Assembly (NCBI GenBank): GCA_041650855.1
Contig: JBAZKJ010000001.1
Coordinates: forward strand, 551,078-615,077
Length of the DNA stretch: 64,000 nt
Reading direction: 5' to 3'
Source of the DNA: Candidatus Margulisiibacteriota bacterium
GTDB lineage: Bacteria > Margulisbacteria > WOR-1 > O2-12-FULL-45-9 > XYB2-FULL-48-7
Position 1 is the first letter of the stretch. Every line of letters begins with the position of its first letter. The translations under genes and the position numbers were made by a program. Of this stretch, positions 1,686 to 58,265 are shown one piece after another. The notes under the pieces were generated by a model. That model made no database searches, was not told where the DNA came from, and worked only from the letters and a program-made list of their open reading frames with translations.

Positions 1686-1761
1686 TTTTTTCTCCTCCCT
1701 CTTGCGAGCGGACCGGATACTGCAATGAACTTGCTGCTATTGTATAATGTTATTAGTCACC

Positions 1762-15954: not shown

Positions 15955-15963
15955 TGTTATAAT
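15955..15963 (+). promoter_or_regulatory. extended -10 TGtTATAAT 7 nt upstream of GTG start of the 1347-aa outer-membrane protein gene
   Basis: Immediately follows the fabF stop TGA (15952-15954). Same stop-TGnTATAAT-N7/11-GTG architecture as at yceD. Confidence 0.4.
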
Positions 15964-15970
15964 ACGGCGT

Positions 15971-38394: not shown

Positions 38395-39497
38395 AAATAA
38401 TGGTCAGCGCCGGGGAGGTCTCCGGCGATGTCCACGGCTCGTACCTGGTCAAGGAGCTGAAAAAGCTTCGCCCTGACCTGGCGTTTTTCGGTCTCGGCTC
38501 CGAACGGCTGGCCGAAGCCGGTGTTGATATTAGATTTGACATCATCAAGCGCGGTTCGATCGGGATCCTGGAAGCCCTGCCCAATGTTTTCCCGCTATTT
38601 TCTATTTTCCGCAAGGTCAAGAAGCTCGTTTTAGCGGAAAAGCCTGATCTTGTCATCCTGATCGACTCGCAGGGGATCAACCTGCCGCTCGCCAAGTTCT
38701 GCAAAGCGGTCGGCATCAAGACTGTTTACTACATCGCGCCGCAGGAGTGGCTCTGGGGAACGCCGCGCGGCGTTAAACATGTCGCGCAGATCGTCGACCT
38801 GATCGTCGCTATTTTTCCGCGCGAATACGAAGCATATAAGGCCGCCGGCGCCAATGTCATCTACGAGGGGCACCCTTTGATCGACATTGTCCAAGCCCCC
38901 CAGCCCCTTAGTCCCCGATCCCCTAGTCCCCGTATTTCCCTCTGTCCAGGAAGCCGGATGCAGGAGATCGGGGGGCTGTTGCCGATCCTGTTAAAAGCCG
39001 GTGAATTGATAAAAAAGGAGCTCCCTGACGCCGAGTTTCTCATCCCGGTCTCGTCGCGCAATCTCTTTCAGGAGATATTCGCCCTGGTCGGCGACTTCCG
39101 GCCGATGGCGGTCTTCGGCAAAACGTATGAGACCCTCGCTTCGTCCAATCTAGCGATCTGCACTTCCGGAACGATCAATTTCGAAGCCTCCCTGCTCGGT
39201 GTTCCCAACATTATGACCTATAAATTATCCCGGCTGACTTACTGGGCCGGCAAATATATCCTGAAGATCGACCGGAAGATCAAATATTTCTGCATGCCGA
39301 ACATTCTGATGGATAATTTAGTCATCCCTGAATTGGTGATGGAAAACGCGACCGCGGAAAAGATCGCTCAAGAAGCTTTGGCTATTTTGCGCGACACTCA
39401 GCGGCAGGAGAAAATGAAAAAGGAGTTCGTTAAACTAAAAGGGGAACTCGGCCGGCCGGGAATGATCGGCCGGATCGCTAAGTCTATCCTCGCCTAA
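38391..39497 (+). CDS. lpxB: lipid-A-disaccharide synthase
   Basis: [14 protein letters not shown]-terminus is typical of LpxB. ATGA overlap with the previous gene. The ORF-track N-extension to 37881 is a frame artifact. Confidence 0.9.
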
Positions 39498-42400: not shown

Positions 42401-43423
42401 GACAAAGGGGCCGTTGTTATATAGGGAGCCGCCTCCCGGATCGAGCCCGCCGACCGAGATGACCCCGTTTAACGCCGCCGGATAGAACGGTTGGCTGGTC
42501 CCGTCGTTCCCGGCGCCGCCCACTATCACGCAGCCAAGCGCGATCGCATAATCGATCGTATCCTGGATGTACTCGGTGAAAAAGTACGCCCCCCAACTGC
42601 AGTTGATCACGCACGGGCCGCCAATGTTATCGGCCGCGTAGACGATGGCGTCGTAGCCGTCATTCGTCTTGATCGCCATTATCCTGGCGTACCAATCCAG
42701 CCCCGCCACCGCTTCTCCGTTGTTCCCCGTCGCCGCCGCCGCTCCGGCCACTTCCGTCCCGTGGCCGGCTGAGCCGATAATGCCCCCGCCTTCGTCATAG
42801 ATATTATTATCGCTGGAGCAAAAGTTCCAGCCGTTGATATCATCAATATAACCGTTGCCGTCGTCATCGATCCCGTTGTCCGCCGTTTCGCCGCTGTTGA
42901 CCCATAGCCGCCCCGCCAAGTCCGGATGGCTGTAATCGATACCGCTGTCGACGATCGCGATCGTGACAGACGAGGAGCCGGTCGAAATATCCCAGCCCGC
43001 CGGCGCGGAGATCTGGGGGAGGTGCCATTGGGAACCGTAATTGGTATCGTCGGGAGTGGTCGTTTTGGCGGGGATGCTGACCGGTTCCGCGTATATCACC
43101 CGCGGGTCGCGTCTCAGTTTTTCCAGCGCCTTGAGAAGATCGGCGCCCGGCGACAATTTCCAGCGGTAAATGTTGGTCAGATCGGGCAGTTTTTGTCCGG
43201 CCGCCCTTTGCAAGGCCGCCTTTTTGGGCCGGGGCTTGAATGCCCGGCGGTAACCTGCGCCGTTGTAGTCATGAGTTAGCCTGTCGGGATCGACTCCCGG
43301 CTTGAGCTTGATAATGACTTCGTCCGGCACATATTGCAGGGGCAGCAGGGCGACAGGCCAAGCCTGACCGCCCGTAACGCCTCCGGCGCCCTTAATGGCG
43401 CTGGTCGCTGCGGGATCTGACAT
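39494..43423 (-). CDS. 1309-aa subtilisin-like protease (S8) with FG-GAP/VCBS-like repeats, Fn3-like domains and acidic DT-repeat C-terminus; no N-terminal signal peptide
   Basis: S8 motifs (DSGIDYSHPDL, HGTEVAG, GTSVASP). Many 'G.DG.NDL' FG-GAP-like repeats. C-terminus is TDSDTDEETDTYDDTDTIDDTDT ... [13 protein letters not shown]. Confidence 0.85.
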   Translation of the reverse strand: MSDPAATSAIKGAGGVTGGQAWPVALLPLQYVPDEVIIKLKPGVDPDRLTHDYNGAGYRRAFKPRPKKAALQRAAGQKLPDLTNIYRWKLSPGADLLKALEKLRRDPRVIYAEPVSIPAKTTTPDDTNYGSQWHLPQISAPAGWDISTGSSSVTIAIVDSGIDYSHPDLAGRLWVNSGETADNGIDDDGNGYIDDINGWNFCSSDNNIYDEGGGIIGSAGHGTEVAGAAAATGNNGEAVAGLDWYARIMAIKTNDGYDAIVYAADNIGGPCVINCSWGAYFFTEYIQDTIDYAIALGCVIVGGAGNDGTSQPFYPAALNGVISVGGLDPGGGSLYNNGPFVDIYAPAQDIYTTHLGGGAISVDGTSVASPLVAGLASLILAQNPVLTPAQVKTIIRRSADDLNQPGWDYFSGWGRINVARALTEMDTTNYPESRIFSPIPAATYEPGDIMVTGRAECVDFAYYIVEWGEGTSPTIWSVTGVTLTAGGTTPVANGDLATINFPDNGTYAIRLTTYDSSGNNSLSTTYFVVDSMAKSGYPLTQTEVVYDLTRADMNADGFMEIAIGYDGKVSIQAGDYSTLASWPATTLSGSKSIAIGDINNDLFNDVISSQWSADPAGNKIYLWGADGIIGAGWPKSPVNVWENFYDCLALSKLNSPDYIDIIAGTSTGTAGRVYFLDSGGLNLTGWPLAPGPVNQCAIGDFDGNGEQEIVFDYSMNSEADNYLNIVDGSGAYSSSSPYILASGEAVRAYAVADLDGNGSDEYFVGTVTNFRGYNGQFSPLTGWPQNHETTNIAIGDVNGDGALEIAASNADNTYLYNMAGTPLPGWPKAAGGKLLLGDVDGDGTADILAMSSNQINAWNGGGVSLPGFPKTISTSLEEHNRMMLGNFDGDCRTDLIAVTEWFEGMSVGSTVYWWELDAEWEPEANPWPLFTHDSRRTYNYNSDIIPPTIAPESTTAIAGYPITVGATFSDPAGVVRGRVYYKPAAESAYSYVEMANISGEEWTADIPLAVAQYNQEINYYYVAHDRYLNPRLEPNCAPQDVLSVTVTDPIAPLIDHLPPATAEAYQQLTIEATVTDNAAVDTVYLHFRTAGETAWQSLPMSGTGSSYSANIAAPAVVQPALEYYLEAVDVASNAMTTEVYTVDIVDALSPAAPTGVAATSEEESQSTVSWLPPGTNIDGSPLTDLAGYIVAYRNVAAAGAWIETDAGNVASATVTGLANHDEYEFRVLAYDNADPVNLGPWSSTATATPGIIDTDSDTDEETDTYDDTDTIDDTDTIDDTDTSDDTDTPGGDDEIRGGGGGCGCSVIGA

Positions 43424-43518: not shown

Positions 43519-44706
43519 TTAGTCAACCAGCGTCATCTTCACCTTGCCAAGCAGGCGATTGTCGTCCTTGGCCAGGATGGTGCCGACGTAGATGGCGTTG
43601 CCGGCCAGGTATCCCTGGTCGCTCCGGCCATCCCATTCAACCTTGTTGACGCCGGCCGAGCCGCCTTCGCTGCCGGCCAGGCAGTTCCAGCGCTTGATCC
43701 GCATGCCGCCGACGCCGATCAGGTAAATGTCGATATTGGCGTCGGTCGACAGGGTGTACTGGATGTAGACCTTCTTCTGCTTGGAGATGCTGAACGGCGA
43801 CGGATAGGTGATCGGCGTGCCGATCAGGCGGACCGGACCGCCCATCACTTCGACCGAGGCGATCTCGGTAGCGGTCGTCGCGGCGGCGATCAGGCCGCTG
43901 GAAGTGGCTTTGACCTTGAACGAATGCTCGCCTTCGCTGAGCGCTTCTTCAAAGGTGTATTTAACGGTCATGCTGCTAACTTTCCCTTCGTCGGCTCCCG
44001 TTCCCGCCGCGTAAACCGTGGAAGCGACGTTGGCGGCGGTCAGGGAGAGCGTCCTCGCGGTCGCCGTTCCCTCGTCGACAACGATCGAGTGCGATTCGAT
44101 GTTCCGGGCCAGGGTGAACGGGCTGTCCATCCCCATTTCCACCTTGATGTCCGGGGTGCTGGAAATAACGAACTTCTCTCCCTTGGCGACCAGCACTTTT
44201 TGGTAGAGGCGGTTGCCGAACCAGATCTTGATCCGCGGGGCCGGCTCGCCGCCGACTTCGGTCGTGACGACTATGGCCAGGCCCTTCCCTTTGGCCAGGA
44301 TCAGCGTCCCCGAGGCGAGGTCGAGCCCCGCGCCGGTGATCTTGACGCTGACCGGGTCTGATCCGTAGCCGTTGGCCGGGTCGCTCGGGTTGTCGTTGGG
44401 AATGGAAACATAGTATGTTTCGCCGACCGTCAGCGAGCTGAATTTAAGCCCGTAGGTATTTAACATATACTGCCCGGTGGCCTTGGCGACCCCGGCCAGC
44501 CCGATCTTATCGAAAGAGTATTTCCCGGCCATCGCTTCATCGGCTGTTTTGTAAAAAATGACGTAGCGCCCTTCCACCGTCTTGCCGTCTTCGGAATCCT
44601 GCGCTCCGCCCTTTACCCAATATTGCGGATAGAACGGCAGGGTGTACGCGACTACCGCCGCCGCCGCTATCAACGCTATTAACAGTCCGATGTAAGCTCT
44701 TTTCAT
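43519..44706 (-). CDS. secreted surface-operon protein: N-terminal CarboxypepD_reg-like (YWVKG) module, Ig-like middle, T9SS-type/FlgD-Ig-like C-terminal domain
   Basis: Signal peptide. PFYPQYWVKG ... VIFYK module shared with the genes at 46771 and 49493. C-terminal YPSPFS ... VEWDGRSDQGYLAGNAIYV ... KMTLVD. SD GGGAAGGAA. Confidence 0.8.
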   Translation of the reverse strand: MKRAYIGLLIALIAAAAVVAYTLPFYPQYWVKGGAQDSEDGKTVEGRYVIFYKTADEAMAGKYSFDKIGLAGVAKATGQYMLNTYGLKFSSLTVGETYYVSIPNDNPSDPANGYGSDPVSVKITGAGLDLASGTLILAKGKGLAIVVTTEVGGEPAPRIKIWFGNRLYQKVLVAKGEKFVISSTPDIKVEMGMDSPFTLARNIESHSIVVDEGTATARTLSLTAANVASTVYAAGTGADEGKVSSMTVKYTFEEALSEGEHSFKVKATSSGLIAAATTATEIASVEVMGGPVRLIGTPITYPSPFSISKQKKVYIQYTLSTDANIDIYLIGVGGMRIKRWNCLAGSEGGSAGVNKVEWDGRSDQGYLAGNAIYVGTILAKDDNRLLGKVKMTLVD

Positions 44707-44716
44707 TATTCCTTCC

Positions 44717-46750
44717 CTAAGGGAGAGTTAAGGTAAAGTCCTCGTTCACGAACACCTGGTATCCTTCGCCCGCGGTGACCAAGAAGTCGGTCCCCTCGCC
44801 GGCCGGGGTCCAGCCGAGCGCCGTGCCGGTGGTCCTGTCCCATTTACCGACGACAATAACGACGCTCTTCCCCGCCTTGGCGTTGATCACGTTGATCAGC
44901 TGGCTCGCGTTGGTGACGGTCGCGCCGGTCGCTTCCTTCAAGCCGCTCGGAATGGTGATCGAGTTGACGATCAGTTTATCCGTGGCCGAGGCCTTGAGCG
45001 GGAAGGTCATACTGCCGCTGCCGCCGGGCACTACGCGGCCGCCGGACAGCACGCCGCCGGAGAACTGGTGCCCGGCAATGGAGGCGGCGCTGGTCGGATC
45101 GAGCGCCGTGCCGGCATTGTAGGCGAACGCCTTAAAGTAGTAGATCGTCCCCCCGGTCGTGTCGAGCGTCTCGCCGGCGAAGTTCGCCAGCGGCGCTTCG
45201 GTCAGCAATCCCGCCTCGGCCGGCGTCGGCCCCGGCTGGTTCAATACCATCTTGGCGATCGCCGGGTTATCCAGGTGCGAGGTTGTCGTCAGGTCCGCCC
45301 AAGCCCCCAGGCTGGTGGTGCCGATGATCAGCGCGCCGCCAAAGAACGCTTCGGGCGGGTTATTCCAGCGGAAAGCTAGCCCGCTGGACGAGGCAAGTGA
45401 AAGGAAGTTCTTCAGCGCGGTCGGGGCCACGCCCGGCGCGGCCGACTTTTGCGTCGCTGCCGACCAGTTGTTCCCCTGCTCTCTCGGCGGGCCGGCAACC
45501 GCCCGGTCGTAAGCATACAGGGCATAATAATAAACCTTGCCGTTCGTCAGGCCGTTGTCGACGTAGCTGGTCCCGGTCCCTTTATAAATAACGACCGCGT
45601 TCGCGTCGCCGGGCGGGTTCGCGCCGACCGCCGGGGCCGGTGTTCCGTCGCTATTGCCGCTGGCGTTGCTGAAAGTCGGCGCCGGCATGCCGGTTTCTTT
45701 TCTCAGCAAGATAACGCCGCCCAGATCGGGGGCGCCCGGGTTCGTCCAGGAGATCGTCAGCTTCTTGTCGGCGGCGGCGATCGCCATGCCGGTCGGCGCG
45801 CCCGGCGCGGTGTAGTCGTGCGGCGTCGCCGATAACTGGGTAGTATTCGCTTCTTCGTTCCGGGTCGGCAAACAATCGTCCAGGCCGTGCGCGGTAAAAT
45901 AATAGGTCGTACAATCGCTCAGCTGTTCCATGGCCGTCCCCGGGATCCCGGTATCCGGACCGTTGGTGTAGGCGGAGGCGTTGATCGCCGAACCGTTAAC
46001 CTTGCTCCCCAGCGTGCCCGAGGCTTCGCTCCGGTATAAGTTGTAGCGGAGTTTGGTGCCGGAAGCGTAGATCGTTTCGGCGTTCTCTTTCTTGTCGTTG
46101 GCCGCCGCTTCGTTCGCCGCCCAACCGAGGGAGACCGTGTTTCCCTTGGTCGTGTCGGCCGCGGTGTTGAGCCCAACAAAGTTCGGCACCTTGGACGCCT
46201 CTAAGTGGATGGTGGTATCGGTCGCGTCGACCGGGTCGACGATGCTGCCGGTAACCGCGGTCCCCGACTGCACGACTGAGACGTTGTTCACCCGGTCGGT
46301 CATGGTGAAGCGGATATAGTAGGTCTCGCTGCCGACCGTCGCCCCCTGGTTAACGTGGAAGCTGATCGTTGCCAGCGTTTTGCTGGCGCCGGCCGCGACC
46401 GCCAGCGGCACCTTGCCGGAGGCCGGATCGGTCTTCAGCTGATAGCGGATCGAGCCCGGCGTGGCGACATTGTTTTCGGAGACGACAAAGTTCGCCGAGT
46501 TCGCCTGGGTGACCGCGATGGACGCTTGCTCCAGAATGTTGCTTTCGTAATCGATGTAGAGCTTGGCGGCGTCGACATTGACAGCCGCGCCGGTGTTGTT
46601 GGTGTAAATGACGTTGACTGTGCCGGTGGCGCCGACCTCAACATAGCGGTATTCGGCCCGGCCGACGTACGGCGCGGAGAACTCGAGCTTGGCGGCGGCG
46701 GCTGTCGCGAGCACCCCTCCTATTAGCAAAAATATTAAGGCTTTTTTCAT
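44717..46750 (-). CDS. secreted surface-operon protein: cohesin-like N-domain, Fn3 domain, shared C-terminal module
   Basis: 677 aa with signal peptide. Residues 20-170 follow the cohesin pattern (LYIDYES ... SIRYQL ... TISFHV). Fn3 in the middle (LTISWTNP ... YYYALYAYD). C-terminal LINVINAKAG ... VGKWD ... GEGYQVFV. Confidence 0.8.
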   Translation of the reverse strand: MKKALIFLLIGGVLATAAAAKLEFSAPYVGRAEYRYVEVGATGTVNVIYTNNTGAAVNVDAAKLYIDYESNILEQASIAVTQANSANFVVSENNVATPGSIRYQLKTDPASGKVPLAVAAGASKTLATISFHVNQGATVGSETYYIRFTMTDRVNNVSVVQSGTAVTGSIVDPVDATDTTIHLEASKVPNFVGLNTAADTTKGNTVSLGWAANEAAANDKKENAETIYASGTKLRYNLYRSEASGTLGSKVNGSAINASAYTNGPDTGIPGTAMEQLSDCTTYYFTAHGLDDCLPTRNEEANTTQLSATPHDYTAPGAPTGMAIAAADKKLTISWTNPGAPDLGGVILLRKETGMPAPTFSNASGNSDGTPAPAVGANPPGDANAVVIYKGTGTSYVDNGLTNGKVYYYALYAYDRAVAGPPREQGNNWSAATQKSAAPGVAPTALKNFLSLASSSGLAFRWNNPPEAFFGGALIIGTTSLGAWADLTTTSHLDNPAIAKMVLNQPGPTPAEAGLLTEAPLANFAGETLDTTGGTIYYFKAFAYNAGTALDPTSAASIAGHQFSGGVLSGGRVVPGGSGSMTFPLKASATDKLIVNSITIPSGLKEATGATVTNASQLINVINAKAGKSVVIVVGKWDRTTGTALGWTPAGEGTDFLVTAGEGYQVFVNEDFTLTLP

Positions 46751-46770
46751 GTTCCTCTTGCTCCTCCTTT

Positions 46771-48225
46771 TTATGGCGTGACCGCCGGCACATAGCCGTG
46801 CGGGCCAGGATCGTTCAGTTCCAGGGCCAGGTTATTAAATGAACCGTACCACCAGCTCGTGTCGATGACGTCGACCAGGCCGTTCTGGTCCAGATCGGAC
46901 CGAATGAACGGATCGGCCGGGTCGTCCTCGCCGGTGGCGTTAAATCTGGTGAACAGGCGATACCAGTGCGAGGTATCGACCACGTCGATGTAATTGTTGC
47001 CGTCCATGTCGCCGGCCCGCAGCATCGTCCGGCCATTGGCCGTGACCAGCGCCGGCGGCTTGCCGGACGGCGCGTAGCAGGTTTCGTTATAAACTCTGGT
47101 CGCCGGGTCGTCGATCACCAGCGTATCGCCGGTCAATTCGAGGCGGGTCGTCGACGCCGCCGTATCCGCGCCGGTGTACAGCGTGATCTTCCGGCTGGTG
47201 ATCGCGGAAAGGTGCCCGATGCCGACCAGTGTCGGCGTTAACCACTGCTTGACCGCCAGGTAATAGTCGCCGTTGGGGAGCGGCGCGACGGCGCCGAACT
47301 CTGTCCCGTCCGGCTTCAGGAAGCCGTTCATCCCGGTCGTGTTGCCGCTCTGGTCGAGAATGACGTCGGCGTAACCGACGATCGTCGTCGCCGTATCGGG
47401 CGACACGCCGGACCGCGCTTCGATCCGGACATATTTCGGCGCCGCGTGGCTAAAGGTCGTCGCGTTGGCCAGCGCCTGGAAGAGAAGTGTCGGCTTGATC
47501 TGCGGCCCGTAAGCGATGATCTGGATCGCGTAAGTGACCGACAAGGTCAGGTTCGCTTCCACGAACTGGCCGGTGGCGTCGGTCACCCTGATCGTGATGT
47601 TATAGGTGCCGGCGGTCGACGGCGTTCCGCTGATCAAGCCGTTGGAAGTATTAAGCGTAATACCCGGCGGCAGGTCGCCCGAAGTAATCGACCAGGTCAG
47701 CGGGTCGGTCCCGCCTTCGGCGGAAACGATCGCGCTATACGGCTGGCCGACGGTCGCGTTCGGCAAGGCCGAGATCGTGATGTGGAGGCTGATCTCCGGA
47801 TCGGTCACCCCTTCGCCGGCCGCCAGCGCAAGCAAGTCGGCGGCCAGGTTCTTATAGCCGTTATTCAAGTCGGCCGTGCTGATAATGACATCTTTCTGGT
47901 TGACGCCGAATCCGCCCTTGTTGACCACCCCGATAAAGTAAGTCGTGGTCGACAAGGGAAGCATTCTCAGGTCGTCCATGGCGTTGATCTTGAACTGACC
48001 GTAAATATCGGTGGTCGCGTCGGCGTAAGCCGCGGCGGTATCGCCGGTCACTTTGTAGAATATGACCTTGAACCCGGAAAGGTCGGTTAAACCGCTGGCG
48101 CCGGCATTGACCACCCCGTTCACCCAGTAGGCGGCCGGGTACGGCGCCAGCTGCTGCGCGGCGAAAACGCTCCCCGCCAGCAGGGCCGCCGTGATCAATA
48201 TTGCCGTTAGTAACTTACGCGCCAT
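46771..48225 (-). CDS. secreted surface-operon protein: CarboxypepD_reg-like N-module, putative Ig domain, C-terminal type-I-like dockerin
   Basis: Signal peptide plus the PYPAAYWVNG ... KVIFYK module. PPGITLNTSNGLISGTPSTAGTYNITIRVTD Ig-like domain. C-terminal duplicated Ca-binding loops DMDGNNYIDVVD and DLDQNGLVDVID. Confidence 0.8.
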   Translation of the reverse strand: MARKLLTAILITAALLAGSVFAAQQLAPYPAAYWVNGVVNAGASGLTDLSGFKVIFYKVTGDTAAAYADATTDIYGQFKINAMDDLRMLPLSTTTYFIGVVNKGGFGVNQKDVIISTADLNNGYKNLAADLLALAAGEGVTDPEISLHITISALPNATVGQPYSAIVSAEGGTDPLTWSITSGDLPPGITLNTSNGLISGTPSTAGTYNITIRVTDATGQFVEANLTLSVTYAIQIIAYGPQIKPTLLFQALANATTFSHAAPKYVRIEARSGVSPDTATTIVGYADVILDQSGNTTGMNGFLKPDGTEFGAVAPLPNGDYYLAVKQWLTPTLVGIGHLSAITSRKITLYTGADTAASTTRLELTGDTLVIDDPATRVYNETCYAPSGKPPALVTANGRTMLRAGDMDGNNYIDVVDTSHWYRLFTRFNATGEDDPADPFIRSDLDQNGLVDVIDTSWWYGSFNNLALELNDPGPHGYVPAVTP

Positions 48226-48239
48226 GGTTCTCCTTCTGT

Positions 48240-49460
48240 TTATTTGTACCCGGTCAGCGTCATGGTAAAGGCGTCTTTGTCGACGCTAACTTGATACGGC
48301 CGGTCCTGGACGATCGAAGCCGCCAATATGTTCGCGACCGAATCTCCTGTGGCGACAGTCAGACCGGTATCGATCGCCGTTCCGGAGTAGCTGATCGCCG
48401 TCAGACCGACGTGCTTCTGGGTGTCGGCGTCGTACCAGCCGAACACTTTAACCGTTTGCTGCGCGGCCTTTTCGTTGATCTTTTCGATCAGCGCCTGGAC
48501 GGTCAGCGTTTTCGGCGCGCCGGTGGTTATTTCCGTCGTGCCATCCCAGATCCCGCTCGACGCGGTGAACGGAATAGAGAGCGTGTTGATGCCGGACGAC
48601 GGCCTCTTAAAGTACCAGGTAACGGGCACCAGGGTGGGACCGCCGGTCCCGCCGGTTAAAGTGGTCCACGCCGGATCGAGCGGAGCGCCGACCGTTGAGC
48701 CGAACCAGTTATAGGCCTTGGGGACAAATTGGTATGTTCCGGCAATGACCAGCGGGTCGGTGCTCGTGGAAAGGACCAGCGTGCCATTCGTGTATTTTGT
48801 CGCCGTCCCGCCCGCGCCCGGATAGGTCACATCTATTGAATATTTAGTCGTGCCTGGCGAAACCGCTGCAGTTTGGATCACTTTAGGCGTTGTTTCGCTG
48901 CAAACAACCGGGACTGTCAGCGTCAGAAACTGGTTCGTTGTGCTGCCGTCCCTTTGCGACGCTTCAACGACCGAGCCGATCGTCGGGGCGTTCGGCGCTT
49001 CTTCGAAATAATTTGCCGAAAAGTTCTTGAGCCACTGCATTGAAGAAGCGATGTTCGAGCCCAAGGCTAATGTTTGCGTCACGGTCTTATCGTCGCTATA
49101 ACCCTGCGTGCCGTACCCGTATTTCCCGCCGGCTTTGTATCTTACTGTAATATTGATCAAATTTTCGGCAAAATAGAACCGGTTAAACGCCGGCTTCCCT
49201 CCAGCCGCCGGGAGTTCATCGATCGTTCCATAAGGAACAAGCGGCGTCCCGTCCTGGTCGGGCGTCGGCAAGCTGGCGGAATTATAAAACTTCAACTCGC
49301 CTGCCAGATAAGCCGCTTTTGGGTCGCTGACCCCGGTGATGGTGCAGTCCGGCGAGCCGATGCTTTTTTCGATCTTAATATATCCTGACGCAAAGGCTGC
49401 TCCCGCCAGCAATAACACCAGCAGTGCAGTCAACCCTCCTTTGATATTGAAATTTTTCAT
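48240..49460 (-). CDS. secreted surface-operon protein with shared C-terminal module
   Basis: Start placed at MKNFNIKGG (SD GGAGGGAG 5 nt upstream). The MEGDNM start in the ORF track is a translation of the SD. C-terminal LIEKINEKAAQQTVKVFGWYD module. Confidence 0.75.
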   Translation of the reverse strand: MKNFNIKGGLTALLVLLLAGAAFASGYIKIEKSIGSPDCTITGVSDPKAAYLAGELKFYNSASLPTPDQDGTPLVPYGTIDELPAAGGKPAFNRFYFAENLINITVRYKAGGKYGYGTQGYSDDKTVTQTLALGSNIASSMQWLKNFSANYFEEAPNAPTIGSVVEASQRDGSTTNQFLTLTVPVVCSETTPKVIQTAAVSPGTTKYSIDVTYPGAGGTATKYTNGTLVLSTSTDPLVIAGTYQFVPKAYNWFGSTVGAPLDPAWTTLTGGTGGPTLVPVTWYFKRPSSGINTLSIPFTASSGIWDGTTEITTGAPKTLTVQALIEKINEKAAQQTVKVFGWYDADTQKHVGLTAISYSGTAIDTGLTVATGDSVANILAASIVQDRPYQVSVDKDAFTMTLTGYK

Positions 49461-49492
49461 ATTATCTCCCTCCATTAATTTATCACTACCTT

Positions 49493-51079
49493 CTAAGGCC
49501 TCGGCGCGTTCCAGTCGATTGGATCGGCATCCAGCTTGTGATAGTACCAGTATCCCTTCCCAATTTCGATCGGCGTATCAGCCCAGGCCGGATCGATCTT
49601 GGAAACAGGGATCAACCCGATTCCATCCCACTTTTGGATCACATCTTCATCTGTCGGGCCCGTGCCTAGCCCAAAGTTGTCAACAATATAATTGATCGGG
49701 TAAGGAGCCGCAATCAGGTTAAAGCTACCTCTGATCTGGCTGCTAAAGTCTGTGTTCTTGACCACTCCAACCATGCGCAATGCTCGCGGGTCTGCCCCAG
49801 TTCCGTCGGTTAATGGCCGGTAGACCCACAATCCCTTACCAAGCGTTATCTCGAAGGGCGGAGTTCCCCAGCCACCCGCCGTATCATTGTAGGAAGCCGG
49901 ATCCAACATCCAGTTGTTCGGATTAAAATCGGTCGTTTTCCATGACTGGATGATGCTTTCGTTCGGCAATTGTGCGCCAACAATATTAGGTATGCTTCCA
50001 TCAATGTGGTTGTTATCGGGCGAGCCGGACGGCGTCGTCGGGTAGAACGGCACGCCGACCAAGTTAAAGCCTTTGGCGAGATCCCATGTATACTTGACCG
50101 CGGTGATGGAGTTCTCCGAGTCTGCCATCCGGAGCGCCGGGTCGGAGGTGGTGACGACGCGGTAATACCGGATCGGCACGGCGGCGTCGGTGATGAGCTT
50201 AGATGTTACTCCGGCGACTTCCGAACCGAGGTTAACGCTGTAATCATCCGGGTTCGTAGAGAACGGCCCGCCGTCCTTGGCATAAATATGAATGGTATAT
50301 CCGGCCGGCGTATCGTAATCCCAGTGGAGGATCACGTTGCCGTTCGTCATCCTTTCGATCCAGGTCTTCCGGACCTTGCCGGTGTCGGCATTGCCGCCGA
50401 CGCTTAACCGGAAGCCGACCCAGGTAACGTTATTGGCGGTAACCGCCGCCGTCTTATTGACCGTGCCGTAGCTCGCCTTGGAACAGGCCAGCGCGTAAGA
50501 TCCCGGATCGAAATTGTCCAGCAAATAGGCGCCGCTGGTGTCGGAGGTATCGGAGGCGCCGGTATTGGCGATAATGGTCGCGCCCGCTACCACCGCCCCG
50601 ACTTCGTCGGTCACGATGCCGGCGATCTGGCCTTTGCCCGCCTGCGGCCCGCCGCCATTGATCAGCGTCAAGCCGGTAGTAATATAACCTTTGGACCAGT
50701 CAACCGTGCAGATCTCCGACGAACCGTAGTTGTTCGTAACGCCGCCCCAGTCCCTGACCACGGCGACGTTGAACACCGGCTTGCCGCCGATCTCCATATA
50801 GTTGTCGTCCTTGTGGTAAAAGAAGAGGTCATAGGCGTTAAAGTAGAACACGCCGCCGGTCCCCACTTCCGCCGTCACGACTTTGGTGCTGTCGAAAGTC
50901 GTGGCGTAAAGAATGACCGGGCGGCCGGCTAATTGGCCGCTCGGGTCGTTGACCGTCCCCTTGACCCAGTAGAACGGCATGGTGCCGGCTTGCGGCGCCG
51001 GCCAAACTGCCGCCGCGGCGCCGGCGAATATCGCCAGTCCGAGCAGCAGCAGTGTCAGTATCTTGATCCGTTTAAACAA
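49493..51079 (-). CDS. secreted surface-operon protein: CarboxypepD_reg-like N-module (x2) and shared C-terminal module
   Basis: TTG start with SD AAAGGGGAA. MPFYWVKGTVNDPSGQLAGRPVILY N-module. Second CarboxypepD_reg-like segment AGATIIANTGASDTSDTSGAYLLDNFDPGSY. C-terminal IEIGKGYWYY. Confidence 0.75.
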   Translation of the reverse strand: MFKRIKILTLLLLGLAIFAGAAAAVWPAPQAGTMPFYWVKGTVNDPSGQLAGRPVILYATTFDSTKVVTAEVGTGGVFYFNAYDLFFYHKDDNYMEIGGKPVFNVAVVRDWGGVTNNYGSSEICTVDWSKGYITTGLTLINGGGPQAGKGQIAGIVTDEVGAVVAGATIIANTGASDTSDTSGAYLLDNFDPGSYALACSKASYGTVNKTAAVTANNVTWVGFRLSVGGNADTGKVRKTWIERMTNGNVILHWDYDTPAGYTIHIYAKDGGPFSTNPDDYSVNLGSEVAGVTSKLITDAAVPIRYYRVVTTSDPALRMADSENSITAVKYTWDLAKGFNLVGVPFYPTTPSGSPDNNHIDGSIPNIVGAQLPNESIIQSWKTTDFNPNNWMLDPASYNDTAGGWGTPPFEITLGKGLWVYRPLTDGTGADPRALRMVGVVKNTDFSSQIRGSFNLIAAPYPINYIVDNFGLGTGPTDEDVIQKWDGIGLIPVSKIDPAWADTPIEIGKGYWYYHKLDADPIDWNAPRP

Positions 51080-51100
51080 AAATTTCCCCTTTGTTATCGC

Positions 51101-52393
51101 CTATTGGCTATTCTTTAAAACGAACTCGATCTTGGCCGGCGGCGCCGTGACCCCGTCCGCGTTGACCGTGCCGATATAGAACTGCGCGCCCATCCCCTCT
51201 TTAAGCGGCGAGGCCTTCAATGCCGCCGCAGCCGAAGAAGCGTCCGGATCGTTCAATGGCAGCAGTACATAGCTCGGCGTCTGGGTCGTTGCCAGCCAGC
51301 TGCCGACCGTGGAAACAACCTTATTCCCGGCCGCAGTGTTAATGACCTTGACCAGGTCGTAAGCCATTTTGACTTCATTTGTCGTGCTGCCGTCATAATT
51401 GGTAAAGTTGAGCGCCGCGCCCAGTTTATCGTACGCGAACCACGGCCCCGGCGACGGCATAGCGATAAAGTTCATCCCCGCGCCGAGCGGTGCCTGCGAT
51501 TCCAGCGTGATAACGTACGTGCCGGAGCCCGCGCCGCCGAACTTCGTGGTGAACGTGTAGGTGTTCGGGGCCGCGCTCGGACCGAACGCGTTCCAGCCGG
51601 TGGTCAGCAGGGTGTAGGTCGTTCCCGCCGTGAGCGCCAGGTTGTCCGGGGCCGCGGCGATCCGGCCGATCAGCTTGGTCGCCGGCGTGCTCGCGTGCGG
51701 CAGGGCGGAGAAACCGACCACTTCCAGCGACATGCCGCTGTAGGAATAATTGGTGTCATAGCCGAGCGTCAGGAACGCTTCACCCATGCTGACGTTCACC
51801 TGGTTAACAACGCCGCCGGTCGAATTGGTCACGGTCGGGGCCGGCGGTGCGCCTGCCGTCTTTTCGGTCCCGCCCAGGGTCCAGCTGGCGCCGACAATCA
51901 GGCCGAACGCGGTCGCGTCGGCCGGGACGGAATACGCCGTCAGGATCGAGTATCTGATAGTGCTCCAAACCACGGGGACGATCTTTTTGCCCAGCACCAG
52001 GTTATCTATGTCAACGTCGAGCCCGCTGCCAAAGTTGACGCTGGTCGTTGGCCCGGTCATGACCTTCAGGTTCGTCCCGTCATATTGGCAAGTAAAGGAG
52101 ATCGCCGGCGAATAGACGGTCGTGCCGACCTTGGCCAGTTTCGGCACCGTAATGTCGGTGGAGATCGCCGTGCCGTCGATCATCGGCTTGATGAAGCCGG
52201 CAATGATGTCGCTTTCGCCCCAGCCGGCCGGCACTTGCAGTACTATGATGTCCCGGTTTTGCAGAGCCGTCGTTAAAGAGAGCGATCCCTGTCTGAGCTG
52301 CATCGACATGCTTTCCGCGTTGGCGACGGAGCATAACAAGATCAAGCTTAAGGCCAGCAACCCACCTTTCACCAAAAATTTACTTACTCTCAT
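51101..52393 (-). CDS. secreted surface-operon protein with shared C-terminal module
   Basis: Signal peptide (MRVSKFLVKGGLLALSLILLCSVANA). SD AAGGGGGAA. C-terminal LVKVINTAAGNKVVSTVGSW ... GMGAQFYIG. Confidence 0.75.
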   Translation of the reverse strand: MRVSKFLVKGGLLALSLILLCSVANAESMSMQLRQGSLSLTTALQNRDIIVLQVPAGWGESDIIAGFIKPMIDGTAISTDITVPKLAKVGTTVYSPAISFTCQYDGTNLKVMTGPTTSVNFGSGLDVDIDNLVLGKKIVPVVWSTIRYSILTAYSVPADATAFGLIVGASWTLGGTEKTAGAPPAPTVTNSTGGVVNQVNVSMGEAFLTLGYDTNYSYSGMSLEVVGFSALPHASTPATKLIGRIAAAPDNLALTAGTTYTLLTTGWNAFGPSAAPNTYTFTTKFGGAGSGTYVITLESQAPLGAGMNFIAMPSPGPWFAYDKLGAALNFTNYDGSTTNEVKMAYDLVKVINTAAGNKVVSTVGSWLATTQTPSYVLLPLNDPDASSAAAALKASPLKEGMGAQFYIGTVNADGVTAPPAKIEFVLKNSQ

Positions 52394-52420
52394 CTTATTC
52401 CCCCTTTTACTTTGTGCGCC

Positions 52421-53644
52421 TTATTCGGCAAGGCTCATTGATTGATAACTCAAACCGGCCGCGTTCAAGCCCCAGCTAAAAGCCGTGACCGAAGCGGGAT
52501 TATTCGATTGATAGAAGTAGCCCCTGCCGCCCTTAAAATCAAGGACCGGCGGAGAAAGCGTCCAGGTGATCGCTGCTCCCGAGACAACCGCCTTTGCCTT
52601 ATCGTATGTCGGATTAGCCGCTGACGTTTTCTTGAAGACCGTGTCGTTGTTAGACGCGAAGTTAAATAAATTTGCCCCTTCGCCGTCCGGGATCGCCCTG
52701 GGAACCGCCATGGAAACGATCGCGAAGCCGCCATTCCCATAGATCCTCGAGGAACCCACCAACTGGACGCTGCCGAGCAGTGTTAACATCTTCGATGCGC
52801 TGGTCTTGACAAAACATCCTGTTCCGGCCGGGATGGTGAGCGAGAACGGATCGCTCCAGGCGGAACCGTTGTATATCGCTTTGTCGTAAGTCGGATTGCC
52901 GGAGGTCTTTTTAAAGATCATGTCTTGGTCCGACCAGTTCGCGATAAAATCGCTGACCAGATGACCTTCGCCTTTTACTAAATGGACGCCCACCAAATTG
53001 AAGCCGCTGGAAAGCTGGATATTGATCTTGCCGACCGCTTCCGCGCTCGGTATGTAGTAGCTGTATTGTGTCGACGGGATCGTCGACCAAAGAGCCTTAT
53101 AATAAACTTCACCCGTCCCCATTTTCACCTGGTTTTGGTGAACTAATTTATTATCCGCATAGGTGAATGTTCCATATCCATCCGGCGTTGGAGAGACCAA
53201 CGCGCCGCCGGAGGCGATCAGCTTCCATTTGGCCGCCGAATAGTCGTTTAAATATTCACCGGCGCCGTTGCCTATTAACGCGAAGATCTGCGGGTTATCT
53301 GTCGTTTCCCAAGTTATTTCGACGTTATTGCCGTTGGCGGATATGTATAATTTATAAGTCCCATCCGCGGCAATTCCCTGGTCGTCCAGCAAGCCCAGGA
53401 TCCCGGGAGTGATCCGGATCAGGCCGGTATCGTTCTGGAAATTAGCGCCTGCCGGCTCGCCGAATGTCTGGTAAAGCTTGATCGTCGCGTTCGCTTCTTT
53501 GGTCCCGCCGCCGTTGGCCGTGTCATACAGCGTGATCTGGGGGTCCGCGTTTATCAGCTTATCCGCGTACACCACGCCGCCGATGGCCAACACCATGGCC
53601 GCGACCAGCGAGATCCTAATTACTAAATTCGAAACTCTAAACAA
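52421..53644 (-). CDS. secreted surface-operon protein with internal duplicated FKKTS..PTYDKA module
   Basis: TTG start with SD AAGGGGAG. Signal peptide. Two repeats of the form D..(I/V)FKKTS(G/A)NPTYDKA. C-terminal GRGYFYQ. Confidence 0.75.
   Translation of the reverse strand: MFRVSNLVIRISLVAAMVLAIGGVVYADKLINADPQITLYDTANGGGTKEANATIKLYQTFGEPAGANFQNDTGLIRITPGILGLLDDQGIAADGTYKLYISANGNNVEITWETTDNPQIFALIGNGAGEYLNDYSAAKWKLIASGGALVSPTPDGYGTFTYADNKLVHQNQVKMGTGEVYYKALWSTIPSTQYSYYIPSAEAVGKINIQLSSGFNLVGVHLVKGEGHLVSDFIANWSDQDMIFKKTSGNPTYDKAIYNGSAWSDPFSLTIPAGTGCFVKTSASKMLTLLGSVQLVGSSRIYGNGGFAIVSMAVPRAIPDGEGANLFNFASNNDTVFKKTSAANPTYDKAKAVVSGAAITWTLSPPVLDFKGGRGYFYQSNNPASVTAFSWGLNAAGLSYQSMSLAE
53615..53642 (+). 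repeat. tandem heptamer array (CCTAATT ACTAAAT TCGAAAC TCTAAAC) overlapping the TTG start of surface-operon gene 52421-53644
   Basis: Reads GTTTAGAGTTTCGAATTTAGT in gene orientation and encodes F-R-V-S-N-L. Confidence 0.5.
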
Positions 53645-56360: not shown

Positions 56361-58265
56361 TTAGTATGTGTCCCAGTTCAAGAGGTCTTTCTTCAAGACC
56401 TGCTGCACGTAATCGGTGCGATAGAGCATCTCCACCGTTTCCGCTCTGGTCAATTGCTTGTTCGGCTCAAAGTTCAGCCCTTTCAGATACTGCAAGATAT
56501 TAACTTTATTGCTCCCGGCGATGATCTTGGCCGCCCAGTGGTTGCCGGCGACGTCCGGGAAGTCGCGGGCGTAGGTCTCTTCGCTGACGCCGGCAAAGCG
56601 GGCGATCATTGCCAGCCCTTCGGCGCGGGTGATCTTGCCGTTCGGTTTAAAGACGTTGCCGGGGTAGCCCTTGACGACGCCGAGCGCCGCCGCTTCCGCG
56701 ACGAACGCGCTGGCCCAGTGCTTCCCGGGGACGTCCTTGAACGCCGCCGCCGTTAACGCCGCCTCTGCCGTCGACGCGTTCTGTTTCCTGGTCTTCATCA
56801 GTAGTGAGCACATTTCGGCGCGGGAAATGCCGCCCTCCGGCTTGAACGTGCCGTCGGGATAACCGGTGATGATGTTCTGCATCGCCAGGAGCGAGATCGG
56901 CTTGTCAACCCAGTAGCCGATGACAACGTCCGGGAAGGTCGTTAAGCGGAGCAGGCGGACCTTGGACGAGCCGACCAGCTTGCCCCGGTCGTCGCTGCCG
57001 GCCAGGATGATGCCGTTCTTGCCGATCTTCAGTTCCACCTCGGTCGAGATGTCCCCCTTCAGGTTCATCTTGACCGGCTGGCCGTTGATCGTGGCGGTGC
57101 GGATCCGGCTGTTCGCCGCGTGCGCGTGGACCCGCGTCGCGCCGGCAAACGTGATCGTCTTGTCATCGGGCGAAGTAAAGGTGAATGGGTCCTTGCTGCT
57201 CTCAACGGCCGGCGGCAGGTAGTTGTAAGAGAGCGAGAAGAAATGGTTGTCGATATTCGGCGCGCCGGCGAAAGCGTGGTAGGCGTAGTCGAACCGGAAC
57301 CCGCCGAAATACATGCCGACGCCGTAAGTCGGATCGGAATAAGTCGTCAGGCCGCCGTTGCCGTCGCCGCCGGCATCCTGGTCGATACCGGCCCGGATCG
57401 CCAGGATCGAGACCGGCTTCCATTCCGCGCCCAAATGCATGACCGGCGGATACCCGGCCAGCGAAGGATGGAGGTCGATGTCGGTCATGATCTTGAGCTC
57501 GTGGTCCCCGTATTTCGCCAGCGCTTTATCTTTGCCGAGCACGGAAAAGGCGGCGCCGGTCTCGATCACCGCCGGGTACGATTCTTCGTGGCCGCCGGAG
57601 TATGTCAGTTTGCCGCCCAGGCCGGCGGGGAGAGCGTTTTGCACCGCCATACCGAGCGCTAGCCAGCGCAGCGGCGTGTATTTGATGCCGAAGTCGAGCT
57701 CCTGGCCGGAGGCGTCGCCGTTCTGGATCCCGTCGCCGTAGAGGCGCGCCCGGAATAATTTAACACTGGTGCCGAGCGTGATCTTGTCCGCTTGCGGGAC
57801 CTGTTTGACGTAAGGGATCTTGTCCGCTTTGTTGCCGTAAGAGAAGACCATGGCGGCGTTGTCGTTCCCCATGGTCGGCTGGCTCGGGTCGATCGTGTAG
57901 ATCGGATCGGCCGGGTCGGACCCCGCTTCGATCGTGGTGGCGAACGCCCCGGCGATCGAGGTCCCGGCGTAACCAAAACCGAAAACGCCGTACTCGGTCG
58001 GATATAAGCCGGAAAAAGAGAGATAGCTGTATTCGTCGAGGAATTTACCGGACATAGAAGACAATTGCCACCCGGAAACGTCGCCCATGCCGGCCGGGTT
58101 GGTGTACATCGCGCCGGTATCGTCGGCCAGGGCGATATACGCTTTACCAAGCCCCAGGACGCGGCCGTTCGGTACGTATCTCGTCGGGTCTTGCGCGACA
58201 TACTGGGCGCAGGCAACGCCCGCCAGTAAAACGGCGGCCACTATGGCGGTTAATATTCGTTTCAT
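56361..58265 (-). CDS. outer-membrane FadL/OmpP1/PorV-like beta-barrel with three C-terminal SLH domains
   Basis: Signal peptide. N-terminus LGLGKAYIALADDTGAMYTNPAGM matches the FadL signature ([25 protein letters not shown]). Three C-terminal SLH repeats (GYPDGTFKPEGGISRAE, GYPGNVFKPNGKITRAE, ... NKQLTRAE). Confidence 0.8.
   Translation of the reverse strand: MKRILTAIVAAVLLAGVACAQYVAQDPTRYVPNGRVLGLGKAYIALADDTGAMYTNPAGMGDVSGWQLSSMSGKFLDEYSYLSFSGLYPTEYGVFGFGYAGTSIAGAFATTIEAGSDPADPIYTIDPSQPTMGNDNAAMVFSYGNKADKIPYVKQVPQADKITLGTSVKLFRARLYGDGIQNGDASGQELDFGIKYTPLRWLALGMAVQNALPAGLGGKLTYSGGHEESYPAVIETGAAFSVLGKDKALAKYGDHELKIMTDIDLHPSLAGYPPVMHLGAEWKPVSILAIRAGIDQDAGGDGNGGLTTYSDPTYGVGMYFGGFRFDYAYHAFAGAPNIDNHFFSLSYNYLPPAVESSKDPFTFTSPDDKTITFAGATRVHAHAANSRIRTATINGQPVKMNLKGDISTEVELKIGKNGIILAGSDDRGKLVGSSKVRLLRLTTFPDVVIGYWVDKPISLLAMQNIITGYPDGTFKPEGGISRAEMCSLLMKTRKQNASTAEAALTAAAFKDVPGKHWASAFVAEAAALGVVKGYPGNVFKPNGKITRAEGLAMIARFAGVSEETYARDFPDVAGNHWAAKIIAGSNKVNILQYLKGLNFEPNKQLTRAETVEMLYRTDYVQQVLKKDLLNWDTY

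Follow-up and report, generated by a model that had tools for sequence, protein, structure and literature searches.

We propose that the last ~90 residues of a 484-aa secreted protein constitute a divergent dockerin that docks the cohesin-like domain of the protein encoded next door, thereby joining two envelope proteins; we put the probability of this reading at roughly 60%. The two are probably a divergent, noncellulosomal dockerin-cohesin pair, which would be a further member of an established class of docking system. Both proteins are encoded on the minus strand of the window (the whole 64-kb stretch of DNA that was analyzed), and the first of them has the following features.

46771..48225, minus strand: gene for the 484-aa secreted protein (open reading frame and translation; orthologs P0001-P0005, P0010, P0011, and P0013)
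Residues 1-22: signal peptide, read by eye
Residues ~16-149: N-terminal "PYPAAYWVNG" domain
47533..47772, minus strand: He_PIG (putative Ig) domain, residues 152-231 (PF05345, E 4.6e-17, 62.7 bits)
Residues ~232-385: conserved beta-rich domain
46774..47052, minus strand: dockerin-like C-terminal module, residues 392-484 (family alignments A1 and A4)
46951-47013, minus strand: repeat peptide 1, GDMDGNNYIDVVDTSHWYRLF, residues 405-425
46975..47010, minus strand: putative Ca-binding loop 1, DMDGNNYIDVVD, with D406, D408, N410, D414, and D417 at positions 1, 3, 5, 9, and 12
46837-46899, minus strand: repeat peptide 2, SDLDQNGLVDVIDTSWWYGSF, residues 443-463
46861..46896, minus strand: putative Ca-binding loop 2, DLDQNGLVDVID, with D444, D446, N448, D452, and D455 at positions 1, 3, 5, 9, and 12
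46786..46812, minus strand: conserved C-terminal motif DPGPHGYVP, residues 472-480, lying past the match of the Pfam dockerin model

That the 484-aa open reading frame is real is indicated by its orthologs, which are 51-98% identical to it and most conserved in the C-terminal tail; an identical copy of the protein is present on ENA contig k141_902998. The He_PIG Ig domain is the only Pfam domain of this dockerin carrier, which by its sequence appears to be nonenzymatic. The signal peptide and the SLH-protein neighbors suggest a location at the cell surface; LPS genes are present in the same organism.

The first-pass annotation had read the span 46774-47016 (residues 404-484) as a type-I-like dockerin with two duplicated loops bearing D/N at positions 1, 3, 5, 9, and 12, each leading into a proposed amphipathic helix. 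Both of the peptides that it quoted are found exactly in the 484-aa translation, and both loops indeed have D1, D3, N5, D9, and D12, with the position-12 Asp (D417 and D455) being invariant across 18 family tails. The two 21-mer repeats share 11 of 21 residues, and their BLOSUM62 score of 66 is the highest of any pair of 21-mers in the entire 484-aa protein; shuffled controls gave 29.8 +/- 3.8, with a maximum of 44, and 0 of 300 shuffles reached 66. The module is made up of two putative Ca-loop-plus-helix segments, whose loops start 38 residues apart, with a Pro-rich linker between them and a C-terminal extension. Positions 10-11 are V-V in loop 1 and V-I in loop 2, and positions 17-18 are Y-R and Y-G, respectively. 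In the D-T-S-[HW]-W stretch of the helices, D, S, and W are invariant among the close orthologs, and P0004, P0005, and P0011 have A, S, or I in place of T. A regular expression for the loop, run on all six frames of the window, matched the two sites in the tail and one further site in a noncoding-looking frame.

An S8 peptidase encoded in the same gene block has FG-GAP repeats rich in comparable D-x-D-G-D/N-G loops, raising the question of whether the loops of the tail are FG-GAP, VCBS, or thrombospondin-type Ca repeats, or a chance motif, unrelated to dockerins. An exhaustive search did bring in the multirepeat proteins P0042 (with 32 matched stretches), P0047, P0049, and P0052, and P0053 has a weak FG-GAP_3 match (0.013). 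Against this, the duplication runs 9 residues past each loop into conserved helix-forming sequence and is beyond the reach of the shuffles, the tails of all relatives have exactly two repeats, always at the C-terminus, and no FG-GAP match at or below 0.01 was found in the 18 family tails. These observations largely refute such an origin, which we consider highly improbable.

The extension after the second helix is itself conserved: GPHGYVP and the D that opens the motif are invariant in 8 close orthologs, the first P of the motif being Ala in P0004, and in distant members a related "...H.YVP" forms the exact C-terminus. A role as a sorting signal similar to those of PEP-CTERM or sortase systems was considered and dropped, since neither a hydrophobic helix nor a basic tail follows the motif and several relatives end exactly with it.

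On the window sequence the Pfam dockerin model PF00404 (Dockerin_1), which had been suggested as a check, was not significant: it gave no match at E<=0.1 on the full 484-aa protein, none at E<=0.01 on the 93-aa tail, and 10.6 bits (E 0.7) on the isolated 62-aa tail, against a gathering cutoff of 22.9 bits. The relatives are more informative. The tail of the ortholog P0011, collinear with that of the window and 62% identical to it (E 2e-43), aligns with model positions 1-51 of 57 at 34.7 bits (E 2.1e-8), with further scores of 28.4-29.5 bits for P0053, 25.2 for P0044, and 22.9 for P0051; among the 18 family tails, Dockerin_1 matches 8 at E<=0.01 and EF-hand_1 matches 3. Family members were found by a full-length query and an exhaustive HMMER search, a word-indexed homolog search with the 106-aa tail alone having found nothing. 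When the profile of the 18-tail family alignment (A4) was compared with solved structures, the best matches were 8x3a/8x39 (1e-10), followed, across both loops, by the type I dockerin of Xyn10B (2ccl_B, 1.2e-5; 1ohz_B, 2.5e-5), with further dockerins in 4fl4_A (2.8e-5), 5nrm_B (7.5e-5), 2y3n_B (1.1e-4), and 8ajy_B (1.5e-4). The profile of the 8 close orthologs alone (A1) is weaker (8x39, 0.008; 8ajy_B, 0.047), and the single tail sequence matches 8x39/8x3a at E 7.5e-4. The dockerin reading of the first pass is hence borne out by the family, and homology supports the tail as a divergent dockerin module. An AlphaFold2 model of the tail from the 8-sequence alignment had values too low for use (pLDDT 37.7, pTM 0.24).

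The top structural match, 8x39/8x3a, is a fragment of ~151 aa labeled "Serine protease" with repeated D-x-D-G-N-G loops (GDIDGNGEISSID and ADVDGNGYVNSID), after each of which comes a helix-like segment; unlike the two-loop tail, it has three to four loops. A literature search found no paper describing it, so we call it a dockerin on its sequence pattern alone.

Calmodulin-lobe EF-hand pairs belong to the same clan and likewise display two paired 12-residue Ca loops. The tail could, then, be a generic EF-hand-type Ca pair, stabilizing the protein or sensing Ca2+ without any docking, which shares with dockerins only the Ca-loop signature. Indeed, the window tail scores the EF-hand models about as weakly as Dockerin_1 (EF-hand_8, 14.0-14.3 bits against a cutoff of 28; EF-hand_7, 13.2-13.4 against 30; EF-hand_1, 10.8 against 25.4), the divergent tail of locus L011 matches EF-hand_9, below cutoff, and calmodulins are returned at E ~1e-4 by the family profile (from 1.1e-4, behind 2ccl_B and 1ohz_B) and at 0.07-0.4 by the single sequence. 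However, none of the family members tested attains the cutoff of an EF-hand family, whereas several attain that of Dockerin_1, and position 12 is an invariant Asp rather than the Glu of EF-hands. Further, invariant prolines lie 5-8 residues ahead of loop 2 and a Gly/Pro/Asn-rich stretch lies ahead of loop 1, so that there would seem to be no room for the entering helices of EF-hands. Moreover, this is a C-terminal, predicted extracellular module of a secreted protein with a cohesin-like domain encoded next door. We therefore regard a plain EF-hand pair as improbable.

The candidate partner is encoded by the next gene of a conserved three-gene module.

44717..46750, minus strand: gene for the 677-aa secreted protein, directly downstream of the tail gene (open reading frame; orthologs P0057-P0063)
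46175..46699, minus strand: cohesin-like domain (residues 18-192 of this protein), to which the tail is proposed to bind
43519..44706, minus strand: gene for a 395-aa protein, the third gene of the module (N-terminal profile match, 45.9 bits)

The junction between the first two genes consists of the TAA of the tail gene, 20 nt that include AGGAGG, and then ATG. The 677-aa protein has an N-terminal cohesin-like domain, a middle part that matches fn3-rich homologs (fn3 families being seen on the distant homologs P0064 and P0065), and a C-terminal domain. The first-pass annotation had referred to a cohesin-like domain in the adjacent gene, and this is likewise borne out: Cohesin (PF00963) is the top Pfam match of residues 18-192 (18.6 bits, E 0.0022, model positions 11-137 of 139, missing the cutoff of 24.1), the ortholog from a WOR-1 MAG (51% identical) passes that cutoff with 25.1 bits (E 2.3e-5), and the model matches 4 of the 8 members of the domain family at E<=1. 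Fold searches with a weak model of the domain returned mostly cohesins. Comparisons of the cohesin-like profiles A3 and A5 with PDB sequences gave no match even at E<=10, and the single sequence of the domain matched only an L-PSP entry in the PDB, spuriously. The start of the 677-aa protein is cohesin-like in character and is likely to be a divergent cohesin.

In 7 of 7 distinct loci with upstream sequence, the tail gene directly precedes the cohesin-like gene. Every locus has a single tail and a single cohesin-like domain, always adjoining, in relatives down to ~26-40% tail identity. Both this strict adjacency and the ortholog that passes the Pfam Cohesin cutoff speak against the chief competing explanation, namely, that the tail does belong to the dockerin family but has its partner elsewhere (a distant cohesin, a glycan, or an envelope protein) and that the neighboring domain is merely a beta-sandwich. 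The dockerin homology of the tail would hold equally in that case, and each line of the cohesin evidence for the neighbor is marginal by itself. Many "orphan" dockerin-like modules outside cellulosomes are suspected of having noncohesin or remote partners, and the Trp/Tyr-rich helices of the tail would also suit the binding of a carbohydrate or a hydrophobic ligand. Further, other cohesins may exist in this genome, since the contig is 504 kb long and the window covers 64 kb of it. On balance, a partner elsewhere seems unlikely to us, though it is less so than a plain EF-hand pair.

Among known systems, the nearest to the proposed pair is the type I pair formed by the Xyn10B/XynY dockerin of Clostridium (Acetivibrio) thermocellum and cohesin 2 of CipA (1OHZ, 2CCL). 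Here, too, there is a C-terminal module of ~60-70 residues, with two duplicated 12-residue Ca loops (Asp at position 12), each followed by a putative helix, and a putative cohesin-like beta-sandwich is available as a candidate partner. The differences are that the carrier is not an enzyme; the partner has a single cohesin-like domain, unlike a multicohesin scaffoldin; the linker of the tail is longer and Pro-rich, and the conserved DPGPHGYVP extension is present; the window sequence scores under the Pfam cutoff; and the host is a Saganbacteria-related diderm rather than a firmicute. Where the type I pair has S-T ... K-R, the two segments carry V-V/V-I (positions 10-11) and, in the helix, T-S-H/W-W-Y. 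The work of Pages in 1997 and Carvalho in 2003 reportedly identified Ser-Thr at positions 10-11 and Lys-Arg at 17-18 as the type I cohesin-recognition residues. The absence of these residues reduces the type I designation of the first pass to a nearest-neighbor resemblance. Type I dockerins owe their dual binding mode to two nearly symmetric segments (PMC12484212), and the tail shares this near-symmetry.

Outside cellulosomes, single-cohesin proteins of unknown function have been described (PMC11557425), and noncellulosomal relatives of known structure include the cohesin of Archaeoglobus fulgidus (2XDH) and the cohesins of Clostridium perfringens glycoside hydrolases (2VO8, 2W1N). In contrast to these examples, both putative partners here are noncatalytic and are encoded by adjoining genes, within a conserved three-gene module that belongs to a larger block of genes for secreted proteins. 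A literature search retrieved no paper linking Saganbacteria/WOR-1 relatives to dockerins.

We envisage that, after export, each loop (D406-D417 and D444-D455) would bind one Ca2+ through positions 1, 3, 5, 9, and 12, and that this would fold the tail module, putatively into a three-helix structure. The near-identical helices V-V-D-T-S-H-W-Y and V-I-D-T-S-W-W-Y might then dock on the putative beta-sandwich formed by the N-terminal, cohesin-like domain of the 677-aa protein, whose gene follows after 20 nt, possibly in a dual binding mode and with one-to-one specificity. The result would be the joining of two nonenzymatic, Ig/fn3-rich proteins in one cell-envelope assembly, encoded in an operon-like block together with SLH, fiber-like, and protease genes.

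If the pair binds as proposed, cohesin-dockerin docking would extend to a candidate phylum that is the sister group of Cyanobacteria and to a setting without polysaccharide-degrading enzymes, adding to the evidence that it is a general extracellular assembly device. Since modules of this kind outside cellulosomes have long been known, the biological payoff would otherwise be modest. In practical terms, both modules fall below curated HMM cutoffs in this lineage and were recovered only with the help of orthologs, family profiles, and gene context. A small, orthogonal one-to-one pair with an unusual aromatic interface might also serve as a connector for designer protein scaffolds.

None of the eleven cluster proteins of the wider gene block matched a glycoside hydrolase or carbohydrate-binding module family, on which account, together with the single cohesin-like domain per locus, we rejected a cellulosome. 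Beyond the S8 peptidase, the block encodes a fiber-like Peptidase_S74 protein. This domain and the "phage tail protein" label on P0064 suggested a phage origin, which was set aside; LPS/envelope genes flank the block, and it is conserved in MAGs. Paralogy among the cluster proteins escaped an all-against-all BLASTP comparison at 1e-3, and profile HMMs revealed it: the C-terminal domain of the 677-aa protein recurs in a 411-aa and a 430-aa protein (37.8 and 22.6 bits), and the 395-aa protein combines an N-terminal domain of the same class as that of the tail protein with a FlgD_ig-like C-terminus (a weak match). No NCBIfam family came near its cutoff on any cluster protein.

A more far-reaching, and to our minds doubtful, possibility is that the pair is a co-diverging one-to-one structural joint of an undescribed envelope structure in Saganbacteria-like diderms, in which docking would build architecture rather than display enzymes. 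Such a structure would comprise paralogous secreted proteins of two classes, in alternation, along with SLH, fiber-like (Peptidase_S74), and subtilase components, and the Trp-rich helices and the GPHGYVP end would be the recognition code of a new dockerin subtype.

The A1-based search for related loci gave one GTDB representative genome only. A gene similar in size to that of the 395-aa protein lies 3' of the cohesin-like gene in loci L003, L006, L007, and L010, its orthology having been read by eye in L007 only. A possible cell-wall anchor of the assembly is encoded in the same block of the window.

56361..58265, minus strand: gene for an SLH-domain protein (PF00395 SLH, E 1.6e-31)

SLH genes are also present in locus L003.

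The C-terminal tail (aa 392-484) of a 484-aa secreted protein very likely belongs, on sequence grounds, to the dockerin family, as one of its divergent members. The ORF that encodes it is a real gene, judging from an identical 484-aa protein annotated on a 504-kb ENA metagenome contig and from orthologues of 51-59% identity, including one from [quoted passage not shown] which the NCBI taxonomy assigns to Candidatus Saganbacteria. The relevant features, all on the minus strand, are as follows.

46771-48225, minus: tail-protein ORF, 484 aa, with the tail at its 3' end
N-terminus: signal-peptide-like stretch, judged by eye
After this stretch: N-terminal domain common to two other cluster proteins (profile searches)
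aa 152-231: He_PIG Ig domain (E 4.6e-17)
Between He_PIG domain and tail: conserved beta-rich region
aa 405-425: peptide 1, GDMDGNNYIDVVDTSHWYRLF, exact match in the translation
46975-47010, minus: 12-residue loop 1, with D, D, N, D, D at positions 1, 3, 5, 9, 12
aa 443-463: peptide 2, SDLDQNGLVDVIDTSWWYGSF, exact match in the translation
46861-46896, minus: 12-residue loop 2, with D, D, N, D, D at positions 1, 3, 5, 9, 12
aa 472-480 (46786-46812, minus): DPGPHGYVP motif, after the second loop-helix and outside the Pfam dockerin model
44717-46750, minus: gene for the 677-aa cohesin-like protein, next downstream of the tail gene

Both peptides quoted in the first-pass annotation, with D/N at loop positions 1, 3, 5, 9 and 12, are thus found exactly in the translated ORF. 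The two 21-mers share 11 identities, and their BLOSUM62 score of 66 is the top for any internal pair of the whole protein. Best pairs in shuffled versions score 29.8 +/- 3.8, with 0 of 300 shuffles attaining 66, and a six-frame regular-expression search of the 64-kb window returned no further credible loop-pattern sites; that chance or FG-GAP-like repeats explain the tail is very improbable. Among the orthologues the tail is the most conserved part of the protein. Its invariant residues include the Asp that ends each loop (position 12), the S-W and S-W-W of the helices, a linker D-P, and G-P-H-G-Y-V-P at the terminus. The last of these (GPHGYVP) is fixed across 8 close orthologues, and in distant relatives "...G(D/K)H.YVP" forms the literal C-terminus; the motif may act as a clasp, or may mark the protein for processing or sorting.

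The window sequence by itself is not recognized by the Pfam model (PF00404): the full 484-aa protein has no Dockerin_1 match, and the isolated tail reaches 10.6 bits (E 0.7; cutoff 22.9 bits), with EF-hand models equally weak. An AlphaFold2 model built from the 8 available orthologues has a pLDDT of 37.7, too low to judge the fold. It is the relatives of the tail that uphold the dockerin reading. Searching 1.84 billion representatives exhaustively with HMMER recovered just 20 proteins at E<=1e-3, which indicates a small family. Within it, the tail of homologue P0011 is collinear with the window tail (62% identical, E 2e-43) and matches Dockerin_1 above the Pfam cutoff (34.7 bits, E 2.1e-8); three further homologues, P0053, P0044 and P0051, also reach that cutoff with 28.4, 25.2 and 22.9 bits, and a search of the whole library with the window tail retrieves them at E-values of 4.7e-4, 1.1e-8 and 1.4e-4, respectively. 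Dockerin_1 is detected at E<=0.01 in 8 of 18 family tails and EF-hand_1 in 3 of 18 (best 0.005). When a profile of these 18 tails was run against all PDB sequences, dockerins ranked first, led at 1e-10 by 8x3a/8x39, a "Serine protease" fragment whose dockerin label derives from its sequence pattern, and followed by the Clostridium thermocellum Xyn10B type I dockerin (2ccl_B, 1.2e-5; 1ohz_B, 2.5e-5) and then 4fl4_A, 5nrm_B, 2y3n_B and 8ajy_B. These alignments cover both loops. Calmodulins appear from 1.1e-4, and a generic EF-hand-type calcium module is the unlikely alternative that such matches bring to mind. The classical EF-hand has Glu at loop position 12 and needs entering helices, whereas the window tail has Asp there and Pro/Gly-rich segments in place of the helices; together with its placement at the C-terminal end of a secreted protein, these features favor the dockerin-type loop-helix motif. 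Coordination through n, n+2, n+4 and n+11 has been described (PMC5429695).

The "type I" part of the original assignment holds only as a nearest-neighbor label: where type I dockerins have their Ser-Thr and Lys-Arg recognition residues, this tail has V-V/V-I and Y-R/Y-G. Its helices instead show a conserved D-T-S-[H/W]-W-Y pattern.

The first-pass annotation had also placed a cohesin-like domain in the adjacent gene, and this too is borne out. The 677-aa gene begins 20 nt after the tail-gene stop codon, with an AGGAGG ribosome-binding site. The best Pfam match of its aa 18-192 is Cohesin (model positions 11-137 of 139), sub-threshold for the window domain (18.6 bits against a cutoff of 24.1, E 0.0022) and above cutoff for the orthologous domain of a WOR-1 MAG, which is 51% identical (25.1 bits, E 2.3e-5); Cohesin matches occur in 4 of 8 family members. 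A weak AlphaFold model from 6 sequences (pLDDT 52.6, pTM 0.50) is all-beta over residues 1-120, and in a Foldseek search of the PDB its ranks 1-13 are cohesins (6kgc_A, 4dh2_A, 1tyj, 5k39_A, 4fl4_K and others), at borderline scores (E 1e-3 to 1e-2, TM 0.30-0.39). Sequence profiles of the domain found no matches in the PDB. We regard it as probably a divergent cohesin. A recent paper notes that HMM searches overlook many cohesins whose sequences have diverged (PMC13463774).

The tail gene lies directly upstream of the cohesin-like gene at every locus with upstream sequence available: the window, L001, L003/L004 (JGI 3300032070), L005 (the WOR-1 MAG), L006, L007-L009 (GCA_964405185.1, where the tail is only ~40% identical), L012 and L011. 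Each locus has exactly one tail and one cohesin-like domain, and the cohesin-like domains of L005 and L007 are detected at E 4e-50 and 6e-13 by a profile built without them. At L011 the most divergent cohesin-like domain accompanies a duplicated tail that has diverged to match, "VNLDDYGVVMTQWL ... INLDDYAVMMRNWF." Across 21 locus pairs, tail identity and cohesin-like identity correlate at r = 0.94 (raw values that include shared phylogeny). A true dockerin serving a partner other than this neighbor, to which the marginal fold statistics leave some room, is rather improbable beside such one-to-one linkage. In the L011 relative (1-756, plus strand, JGI 3300045072) the calcium loops of the tail are largely degenerate, "DPDNLERVNLDD" then "TNDNWINLDD," but the helix is still present in duplicate, "NLDDY[GA]V[VM]M..W[LF]"; this tail is possibly a calcium-independent version of the module. 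At L003, L006, L007 and L010 the cohesin-like gene is followed by a third gene of similar size, whose L007 product clearly resembles the window 395-aa protein.

From this signature, homology and gene linkage, we propose that the tail would bind two Ca2+ ions, fold as a dockerin and dock specifically on the cohesin-like domain of its co-expressed neighbor, joining two non-enzymatic modular proteins in an envelope-associated assembly; to this reading as a whole we give a probability of about 0.6. Type I dockerins have a dual binding mode (PMC12484212), and the near-identity of the two tail helices would permit the same here.

There is ample precedent for cohesins and dockerins that are not part of cellulosomes: PMC11557425 reports "single-cohesin proteins of unknown function" as well as carriers that are non-cellulolytic, and non-cellulosomal structures from A. 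fulgidus and C. perfringens are among the fold matches of the cohesin-like domain. The present pair is a divergent addition, distinguished by its aromatic-rich helices, GPHGYVP end, strictly adjacent one-to-one arrangement, non-catalytic carriers and diderm candidate-phylum host. Modules of both kinds outside cellulosomes were reportedly covered by Peer and colleagues in 2009. Our literature search found no link between dockerins and Saganbacteria, and the two papers naming both Saganbacteria and cohesin touch on them only briefly. The pair would be of greater interest should it turn out to join the parts of an envelope structure of a new kind.

Both genes belong to a larger block, in transcription order:

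39494-60260, minus: whole block, beginning with a BNR/Ycf48-like protein and the SLH protein
56361-58265, minus: SLH-domain protein (E 1.6e-31), SLH repeats at the C-terminus
53657-56335, minus: 892-aa secreted protein with a terminal Peptidase_S74 intramolecular-chaperone domain (E 6.8e-16)
43519-53644, minus: six consecutive secreted proteins, two paralogue classes alternating along the operon
39494-43423, minus: S8 subtilase, 1309 aa, with a Fervidolysin-like prodomain, four FG-GAP repeats and an fn3 domain
36326-39497, plus: adjoining LPS-biosynthesis genes LpxC, FabZ-LpxA and LpxB

Junctions in the block are 6-27 nt, apart from one of 95 nt ahead of the final gene, and its intergenic gaps showed no terminator, terminator-like sites being at background level. 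Paralogy among the six secreted proteins escapes BLASTP, and profile HMMs alone show the two classes: the N-terminal domain of the tail protein ("PFYWVKG") recurs in the 528-aa (54 bits) and 395-aa (46 bits) proteins and the C-terminal domain of the 677-aa protein in the 411-aa (38 bits) and 430-aa (23 bits) proteins. Since no glycoside hydrolase or carbohydrate-binding module was found in the block proteins, we rejected a cellulosome. The block is flanked by LpxC, FabZ-LpxA, LpxB and AsmA genes, a sign of a diderm host, so that the SLH protein encoded beside LPS genes points to SLH anchoring in a diderm; the assembly could be periplasmic or on the outer surface, either of which fits such a host.

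The 892-aa protein has a coiled-coil-like tail after its Peptidase_S74 domain, an ending shared with phage tailspikes and fibres, and L003 has two Peptidase_S74-type genes with weak YadA_head matches. The 1309-aa subtilase contains a long low-complexity linker rich in Asp and Thr, and its unusual C-terminus may be a signal for sorting or lipidation. Weak FlgD_ig/CHU_C/PorU-C-like C-termini, resembling type IX secretion C-terminal domains with all matches sub-threshold, are seen in a second S8 subtilase (20011-22224, minus) and the 395-aa protein (43519-44706, minus). A 1347-aa ORF (15971-20014, plus) with only a weak DUF2460 match (23.7 bits, cutoff 30.4) overlaps minus-strand ORFs of 485, 246 and 523 aa (15938-19768). 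A TMEM260-like/PMT_2 protein O-mannosyltransferase-type gene with TPR repeats (1747-3606, plus) and a gene for an 814-aa protein with three GT2 glycosyltransferase matches (24288-26732, plus) hint that envelope proteins of the host may be glycosylated.
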